Under the pieces are notes generated by a model, which was not told where the DNA came from, did no database searches, and saw only the letters and a program-made list of their open reading frames with translations. Shown here in pieces: positions 12,981 through 13,175 of a DNA stretch of 64,000 nucleotides. Position 1 is the first letter of the stretch. Each line of letters starts with the position of its first letter. The translations under genes were made by a program, and so were the position numbers. The stretch comes from Candidatus Bathyarchaeia archaeon (GTDB lineage Archaea; Thermoproteota; Bathyarchaeia; 40CM-2-53-6). Location: contig JBEKFP010000001.1 in NCBI GenBank assembly GCA_050013255.1, positions 512,001-576,000 on the forward strand, read 5' to 3'.

Positions 12981-13175
12981 TGGTGCGGGGGAGGGGATTC
13001 GAACCCCTGAACCCCTACGGGACGAGGTCTCTTAACATCCAGGTTTGATGTTCCTGAGCTTCACGTACGTATGGTTTGGATACGTCTCGCGCCTTTGACC
13101 TGGCATCGCCCCCTCGGCATCCGAGAGTTTGGCAGTGGAGGACTAACGCACGCTTTAGGCGTGGCCTACCCCCGC
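12981..13175 (-). tRNA. tRNA-Leu(CAG) with four introns; CCA encoded
   Basis: Acceptor GCGGGGG/CCCCCGC-ACCA; T arm AGGGG-TTCGAAT-CCCCT; Leu variable arm CCC-GTAG-GGG; removing introns 13167-13135, 13128-13105, 13085-13060 and 13052-13029 yields a canonical 88-nt tRNA-Leu. Confidence 0.92.

Follow-up and report, generated by a model that had tools for sequence, protein, structure and literature searches.

Four predicted bulge-helix-bulge introns in a tRNA-Leu(CAG) gene from a Bathyarchaeia genome

In the canonical bulge-helix-bulge (BHB) motif each strand carries four helix nucleotides followed by a 3-nt bulge, and the cut falls after the second bulge nucleotide. Multi-intron tRNA genes have been described in the Thermoproteales, including Pyrobaculum, Thermofilum and Caldivirga (Sugahara et al. 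2008, as cited in PMC4033280 and PMC8450103), the maximum per archaeal tRNA gene being stated as three introns and the richest genome cited having 71 introns in 46 genes (PMC4033280; PMC8450103, the tRNAscan-SE 2.0 paper). Three Asgard genomes with 92-95% of their tRNA genes interrupted were reported in 2024 (PMC11291895), and an October 2026 preprint on three Asgard families gives 2.2 inserts per gene with up to five in one gene, noting also that tRNAscan-SE often misses introns of the D-arm. A literature search on tRNA introns or intron load in Bathyarchaeia or Bathyarchaeota found no report.

We analysed a window of 64,000 nt from a Candidatus Bathyarchaeia archaeon together with its genome assembly (2.46 Mb in 3 contigs, 50% GC) and with orthologous loci from related genomes. 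Judged from the sequence, the locus at 12981..13175 is with a probability of roughly 93% a real, single and functional tRNA-Leu(CAG) gene carrying four BHB introns, at tRNA positions 8/9, 14/15, 30/31 and 37/38. An earlier note had proposed one such gene with four introns, a proposal now supported by an ARAGORN call, BHB statistics, 18 orthologues and natural intron-less alleles. As in the Thermoproteales, BHB and relaxed BHB introns occupy canonical as well as non-canonical positions, some of them in the D-arm and anticodon stem, the introns are closely packed, related introns occur at the same positions in paralogous tRNAs, and the splicing endonuclease EndA appears to be of the (alpha-beta)2 type with a Crenarchaea-specific loop (CSL), here assigned by sequence. 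The Thermoproteales differ in having at most three introns in a gene and 1.54 per gene in the richest genome, against four here and ~1.9 per gene among 25 solved tRNA genes. The earlier note had named them as the main hosts of archaeal tRNAs with two or three non-canonical introns, but a placement of the present host among them did not stand: the exact 3′ exon recurs in contigs whose titles give Candidatus Bathyarchaeia or Bathyarchaeota as the source of the MAG, recovered from SPRUCE peat and from Danish soils, and the host is therefore not a member of the Thermoproteales and belongs instead to the Bathyarchaeia, mesophilic archaea of peat and soil.

Likeness to the Asgard genomes of the 2026 preprint extends to more than 90% of tRNA genes being interrupted, most by several introns, to many D-arm introns being missed by annotators, to a preference of inserts for BHB-compatible sites, to a typical insert length of ~22 nt and to the crowding of inserts in one gene, up to five in the Asgard case. 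The Asgard archaea are however a different phylum, not closely related, and Bathyarchaeia are absent from the panels of the preprint as far as its text shows; in further contrast, two of the four sites in the tRNA-Leu(CAG) gene hold an intron in some members of a single genus and lack it in others. The view that four introns are extreme for an archaeon thus holds against the older literature with its maximum of three, but not against a tRNA-Pro(GGG) gene with four in the same genome or against the Asgard genes with up to five. Four introns are above the textbook maximum, typical of the genus, and matched or exceeded in Asgard archaea.

The gene and its parts are as follows.

12981..13175, minus strand: whole tRNA-Leu(CAG) gene from nt 1 to the genomically encoded CCA, 195 nt (88 exon and 107 intron)
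13168..13175, minus strand: exon 1, GCGGGGGU, tRNA nt 1-8, 8 nt, invariant in 18 orthologues
13135..13167, minus strand: predicted intron 1 at 8/9, 33 nt, central helix H GGGG/CUCC with one G-U
13129..13134, minus strand: exon 2, UGCCAA, nt 9-14, 6 nt
13105..13128, minus strand: predicted intron 2 at 14/15 in the D-loop, 24 nt, H UGCC/GGCG with one G-U, 7-bp hairpin CUCUCGG/CCGAGGG
13086..13104, minus strand: exon 3, GCCAGGUCAAAGGCGCGAG, nt 15-30, 19 nt
13060..13085, minus strand: predicted intron 3 at 30/31 in the 5′ strand of the anticodon stem, 26 nt, H CGCG/CGUG (C25-G28) with one G-U
13053..13059, minus strand: exon 4, GCUCAGG, nt 31-37, with the anticodon CAG at 34-36, 7 nt
13029..13052, minus strand: predicted intron 4 at the canonical 37/38 site, 24 nt, H CUCA/UAAG with a conserved C34.A mismatch, 5-bp hairpin ACAUC/GAUGU
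12981..13028, minus strand: exon 5, nt 38-76, 48 nt including the genomic CCA

The exon and insert boundaries that the earlier note had read on the minus strand from 13175 to 12981 match the sequence base for base, with 107 of the 195 nt as insert, and the central helices are those it had described (GGGG/CTCC, TGCC/GGCG, CGCG/CGTG and CTCA/TAAG, the last with one C.A mismatch). The BHB geometry applied here agrees with that described in the 2026 Asgard preprint. In all four inserts both strands place the cut site between the second and third nucleotides of a 3-nt bulge; four of four helix positions are paired in introns 1-3, each including one G-U, and three of four in intron 4 owing to the C.A mismatch. 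Intron-side hairpins (h′) of 3, 7, 6 and 5 bp are present in introns 1-4 respectively. The exon-side outer helix (h) comprises only 0-2 bp in the unspliced context, so that all four introns would be relaxed HBh′ forms until neighbouring introns are removed.

In intron 1 the H strand is provided by G3-G6 of exon 1, with bulges GUA and ACU (cut as GU-A and AC-U), the hairpin GGC/GUC and an inner stem CACGC/GCGUG. The hairpin of intron 3 (ACGUAU/AUACGU, 6 bp) is offset by one nucleotide, a relaxed form. Intron 4 resembles the canonical archaeal 37/38 intron as described in papers citing Marck and Grosjean (2003), its central helix being built from nt 32-35, with the anticodon stem as an outer helix once intron 3 has been removed; compared with that description it departs in its conserved C34.A mismatch and in having the outer helix broken by intron 3 in the primary transcript. 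Because intron 4 ends in G, its register is ambiguous between 36/37 and 37/38 from the linear sequence, and the BHB register fits 37/38. Exon 5 supplies the 3′ strand of the anticodon stem, a 14-nt variable arm, the T-arm, the 3′ acceptor strand, A73 and the encoded CCA. Each module needs the last six nucleotides of an exon together with the 3′ terminus of the intron after it, which puts exon 2 (6 nt) and exon 4 (7 nt) near the geometric minimum. Exon 2 consists of the H strand and two bulge nucleotides of the intron-2 motif and nothing else, one nucleotide below the need of two independent motifs, and U9 accordingly serves in both, being third in the intron-1 bulge and first in the intron-2 helix. 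With five exons collinear within 195 nt of one strand, a split or permuted tRNA gene was ruled out.

Placements of the same lengths elsewhere in the precursor pass the BHB test in 1.8% of cases. When the introns were shuffled with the exons fixed, the pass rates were 4.6%, 5.3%, 0.2% and 0.6% for introns 1-4, and none of 5000 shuffles passed at all four sites jointly. A motif-free spliced alignment, which has no knowledge of BHB structure, recovered the identical four inserts, apart from the choice between 36/37 and 37/38 for intron 4.

Removal of the four inserts in silico gives the standard 88-nt tRNA-Leu that had been predicted, called by ARAGORN as tRNA-Leu(cag). This is a class II tRNA-Leu with anticodon CAG, a 7-bp acceptor stem, standard D- and T-arms, a 14-nt variable region, A73 and terminal CCA, and it agrees at 83 of 85 positions with a Leu(CAG) gene that runs uninterrupted in L032, a MAG contig titled Hadarchaeota. 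We utilized a SPLITS-like solver which anchors on the T-arm and acceptor, enumerates BHB-compatible excisions and scores the resulting cloverleaf; it gave a total of 30.9 for the locus. Reversed-genome controls did not exceed 24.1, and genes that Rfam or ARAGORN had already identified scored at least 28. Looser BHB criteria had given 548 candidates in 198 nt, and the criteria were tightened and the candidates rescored. In the unspliced window no tRNA was reported at the locus by ARAGORN or by Rfam at its gathering threshold, and the intron mode of ARAGORN miscalled it as Ser(GGA) with a long intron; the expectation that standard finders would miss or mis-call the gene thus holds for these two. 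The 2.46-Mb assembly yielded no further Leu(CAG) gene. The nearest relative is a Leu(TAG) gene at C1:211590-211724, which had been considered as a second Leu(CAG) copy and was rejected on its identity.

The locus is carried by 17 genomes of the same genus (the present genome and 16 others), which together with contigs of a genome collection, 20 of them matching an exact 48-mer pattern of the 3′ exon, gave 18 distinct sequences. Across these orthologues the exons are near-invariant, position 9 varying between U, C and A, while the inserts range from 16 to 33 nt in length with the H helix and cleavage register kept in 18/18. Introns 3 and 4 are present in all 18. Intron 1 is precisely missing in two sequences (L009 and L011), which read GCGGGGGT joined directly to TGCCAA, and intron 2 in two others (L004 and L005), where TGCCAA is joined to GCCAGG. 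In intron 1 the H′ strand is CUCC or CCCC and the hairpin GGC/GUC, AGC/GCU or GGCA/UGCC. The intron-2 hairpin displays many double-sided compensatory changes (CUCUCGG/CCGAGGG, CUCUCAA/UUGAGAG, CUUCCGA/UCGGAAG, CCUUCAGC/GCUGGAGG), and that of intron 3 also covaries (ACGUAU/AUACGU, ACGCAU/AUGUGU, CGCACCU/GGGUGUG, CACAU/AUGUG). Near-invariant exons with covarying hairpins are what would be expected of spliced introns under structural selection and not of a decaying gene. A tRNA pseudogene which had accumulated insertions, with a fortuitous resemblance to BHB motifs and no functional product, would account for the silence of standard finders and for thermodynamic folding that disfavours the helices of introns 1 and 4. 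Such a decayed gene is scarcely credible given the exon conservation and structure-preserving intron covariation in 18 orthologues, four joint BHB motifs far beyond chance and a conserved promoter-like block and CCA, in what is moreover the sole Leu(CAG) gene found in the genome.

Three contigs carrying the exact 3′ exon are binned under other names, as Acidiferrales bacterium (L038), Promethearchaeati archaeon (L029) and Hadarchaeota archaeon (L032). The first duplicates the gene of another contig in the set (L006) and is therefore probably mis-binned; the last is the sole intron-free version of the Leu(CAG) gene.

For the functional four-intron gene we infer from the sequence that splicing occurs; any order of its cuts would likewise be an inference. 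A search of sequencing runs with 8 kb around the gene listed no RNA run, a result that is silent on expression. A single precursor of ~220 nt would be transcribed, in which the last six exon nucleotides of each module (four helix and two bulge) would pair with the 3′ terminus of the next intron, each BHB motif being closed by a hairpin within that intron. EndA, composed of a catalytic alpha subunit with CSL and a non-catalytic beta-like paralogue, would then cut both bulges of each motif, and RtcB would join the exons to give a class II tRNA whose variable arm is long and which carries A73 and the encoded CCA. The machinery for these steps was identified in the genome, which encodes two EndA paralogues, at L021:1213-1785 and L022:1204-1767. 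The alpha-type paralogue (190 aa) aligns with the catalytic alpha subunits of the enzymes from A. pernix, S. tokodaii and P. aerophilum (E=1.5e-38 to 2.4e-28), its alignment to A. pernix 3P1Z_B having E=1.5e-38. Its CSL aligns without deletion and is one residue longer than that of A. pernix, and K43/K45, Y127/H135/K166, R159 and W187 correspond to A. pernix K44/R46, Y125/H133/K164, R157 and W183. The second paralogue (187 aa) has both EndA domains without the CSL and without the catalytic His, which fits a structural beta subunit. The EndA subunit type had been named in the earlier note as a check on the gene, and by alignment the host enzyme is assigned to the CSL-bearing (alpha-beta)2 class. 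It is the CSL with its lysine that has been shown to enable EndA to cut non-canonical and relaxed motifs (PMC3241643). An RtcB ligase gene is also present, in a single 1039-aa open frame (G000:C1:110968-113778, minus strand). Profile positions 1-60 and 49-426 of this RtcB are separated by ~1.4 kb, and a large in-frame insertion, probably an intein, is therefore likely.

Not all aspects of the precursor fit this scheme equally well. Against it stand the C.A mismatch in the helix of intron 4, the unspliced exon-side outer helices of 0-2 bp, and U9, which cannot be bulged for intron 1 and paired for intron 2 simultaneously. In nearest-neighbour folding the helix of intron 2 is strongly and that of intron 3 moderately predicted, but the central helices of introns 1 and 4 have a predicted probability of approximately zero in all 15 partly spliced intermediates, so that stabilisation by the enzyme or an alternative fold of the precursor would be needed; a fold constrained to hold all four helices lies ~14 kcal/mol above the MFE. 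The intron-1 helix (G3-G6) competes with the acceptor stem and the intron-3 helix (C25-G28) with the D stem and anticodon stem.

These conflicts bear on the order of excision. The earlier note had held that intron 3 must leave before the full anticodon stem flanking intron 4 can form, and that splicing is thereby ordered. It is true that the intron-3 BHB cannot coexist with the full anticodon stem; an order is not implied by this, as intron 4 keeps its central helix and 5-bp hairpin regardless of intron 3. An obligatory order, with intron 3 removed before intron 4 and one of introns 1 and 2 before the other, is possible though doubtful. The intron-3 helix occupies C27 and G28, thus excluding the top of the anticodon stem, U9 is claimed by two motifs, and the authors of tRNAscan-SE describe cases in which one intron must leave before the next BHB forms (PMC8450103). 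Each module however retains H and a 3-7-bp intron hairpin independently of the others, and CSL-type EndA cleaves relaxed motifs (PMC3241643). Neither at 37 nor at 60 °C did the predicted folds of the 15 intermediates show a clear or consistent dependency in helix probabilities, that of intron 4 being near zero with or without intron 3.

Alignment of 17 loci identified two conserved elements upstream of the gene.

13176..13200, minus strand: conserved 5′ leader, GUGCGGGGUAGGACCUUUGGCUUAU, 25 nt
13225..13239, minus strand: promoter-like block, GCATTAGCTTTATGT

A TATA-like TTTATG begins 31 nt upstream of the first G of the leader. From this spacing and from archaeal promoter architecture, the GCATTAGCTTTATGT block is presumably the promoter. 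The first 8 nt of the leader, GUGCGGGG, are the exact complement of tRNA nt 67-74 at the 3′ end, and a second conserved leader block, CUGGCU, is complementary to the D-loop AGCCAG; the leader start GUGCGGGGUA shows no variation in 14 of the 17 loci, whereas elsewhere the leader varies. No comparable leader was found in the other solved tRNAs (25 in the genome), including Leu(GAG) with its 8/9 intron. The leader could represent a cis-acting "anti-acceptor" element which pairs with nt 67-74 and the D-loop, keeping the precursor open and non-cloverleaf with G3-G6 free for the intron-1 BHB, and which RNase P would remove only after splicing. If true, this would be a built-in folding chaperone of a multi-intron pre-tRNA, of which we know of no described case. 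In the present genome, folding with the leader included gives a helix between leader and 3′ end at P=0.99 and raises the predicted probability of the BHB helix from 0.00 to 0.89 for intron 1 and from 0.01 to 0.95 for intron 3. Across the 18 orthologues, however, real and shuffled leaders gave 0.27 vs 0.26 for intron 1, 0.54 vs 0.28 for intron 2 and 0.33 vs 0.24 for intron 3, that is, no gain for intron 1 and a modest one for introns 2 and 3. A chaperone role was thus not favoured, and on these models we consider it unlikely.

The leader also contains a near-copy of the tRNA 5′ end, GCGGGG at 13198-13193, conserved in 17 loci, and if this copy supplied the 5′ nucleotides of the tRNA the 22-23 nt between the copies would constitute a fifth BHB intron. 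Solver solutions starting from the upstream copy have cloverleaf scores equal to that of the four-intron solution, and when the join is set after upstream nt 5 a BHB-like motif arises in every orthologue. This motif has only two G-C pairs, themselves a consequence of the GC palindrome in the duplicated sequence, its other two positions being G.U or mismatched, with one mismatch in 7 of 17 distinct leaders. Furthermore the 2-nt leader left behind would still require RNase P, whereas four introns with ordinary 5′ processing provide a simpler route to the identical product. We therefore regard a fifth intron as very improbable, and as main model it was rejected as a weak pseudo-BHB following from the duplication.

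Heavy interruption is a trait of the lineage and not a peculiarity of the tRNA-Leu(CAG) gene. From 44 CCA-followed anchors the solver gave 25 confident genes, ARAGORN calling the same anticodon for 24 of the 25 spliced products; five calls of an intron after nt 1 were artefacts and were dropped. One of these genes has no intron, eight have one, eleven two, one three and four four, although the "four-intron" solutions for Gly-CCC and Cys-GCA contain 1-nt exons and are counted as three or more. In total 24 of the 25 (~96%) are interrupted, with ~1.9 introns per gene as a lower bound, in a census that leaves out ~15 CCA-anchored candidates and all genes with interrupted T-arms. With this value, and with four introns in at least two genes, the genome lies above the Thermoproteales record and approaches Asgard values. 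The Bathyarchaeia, among the most abundant uncultured archaea of soils, peat and sediments, thereby join the few lineages with heavily interrupted tRNA genes. The known mechanism of archaeal tRNA splicing is unchanged by the tRNA-Leu(CAG) finding.

The second clear case of four introns is tRNA-Pro(GGG) (G000:C3:122293-122472, plus strand; L043/L044), whose BHB introns follow linear positions 15, 23, 33 and 48 and all have a fully paired central helix of 4 bp. It was not found by ARAGORN or Rfam. In 18/18 members of the genus in which it was located the gene has four introns, and 13 of them, the present genome included, agree fully in the mature sequence. Genome-wide, Rfam gave 19 tRNA matches, 17 of them followed by a genomic CCA, and ARAGORN many miscalls with introns of at least 1 kb. 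As such genes are missed or miscalled by both, tRNA complements, and the completeness and codon-usage inferences drawn from them, are understated for these MAGs.

The introns of the Leu(CAG) gene have counterparts in its paralogues. Leu(TAG) (G000:C1:211590-211724, minus strand) contains a 26-nt intron at 14/15 similar to intron 2 and another near 30/31, and Leu(GAG) (G000:C1, ~1243990-1244175, plus strand) a 24-nt intron at 8/9 and another near 37/38. Intron positions common to the tRNA-Leu paralogues suggest either old introns or copying between tRNA-Leu genes, and together with the natural intron-present and intron-absent alleles provide material for the question of how BHB introns are gained and lost.
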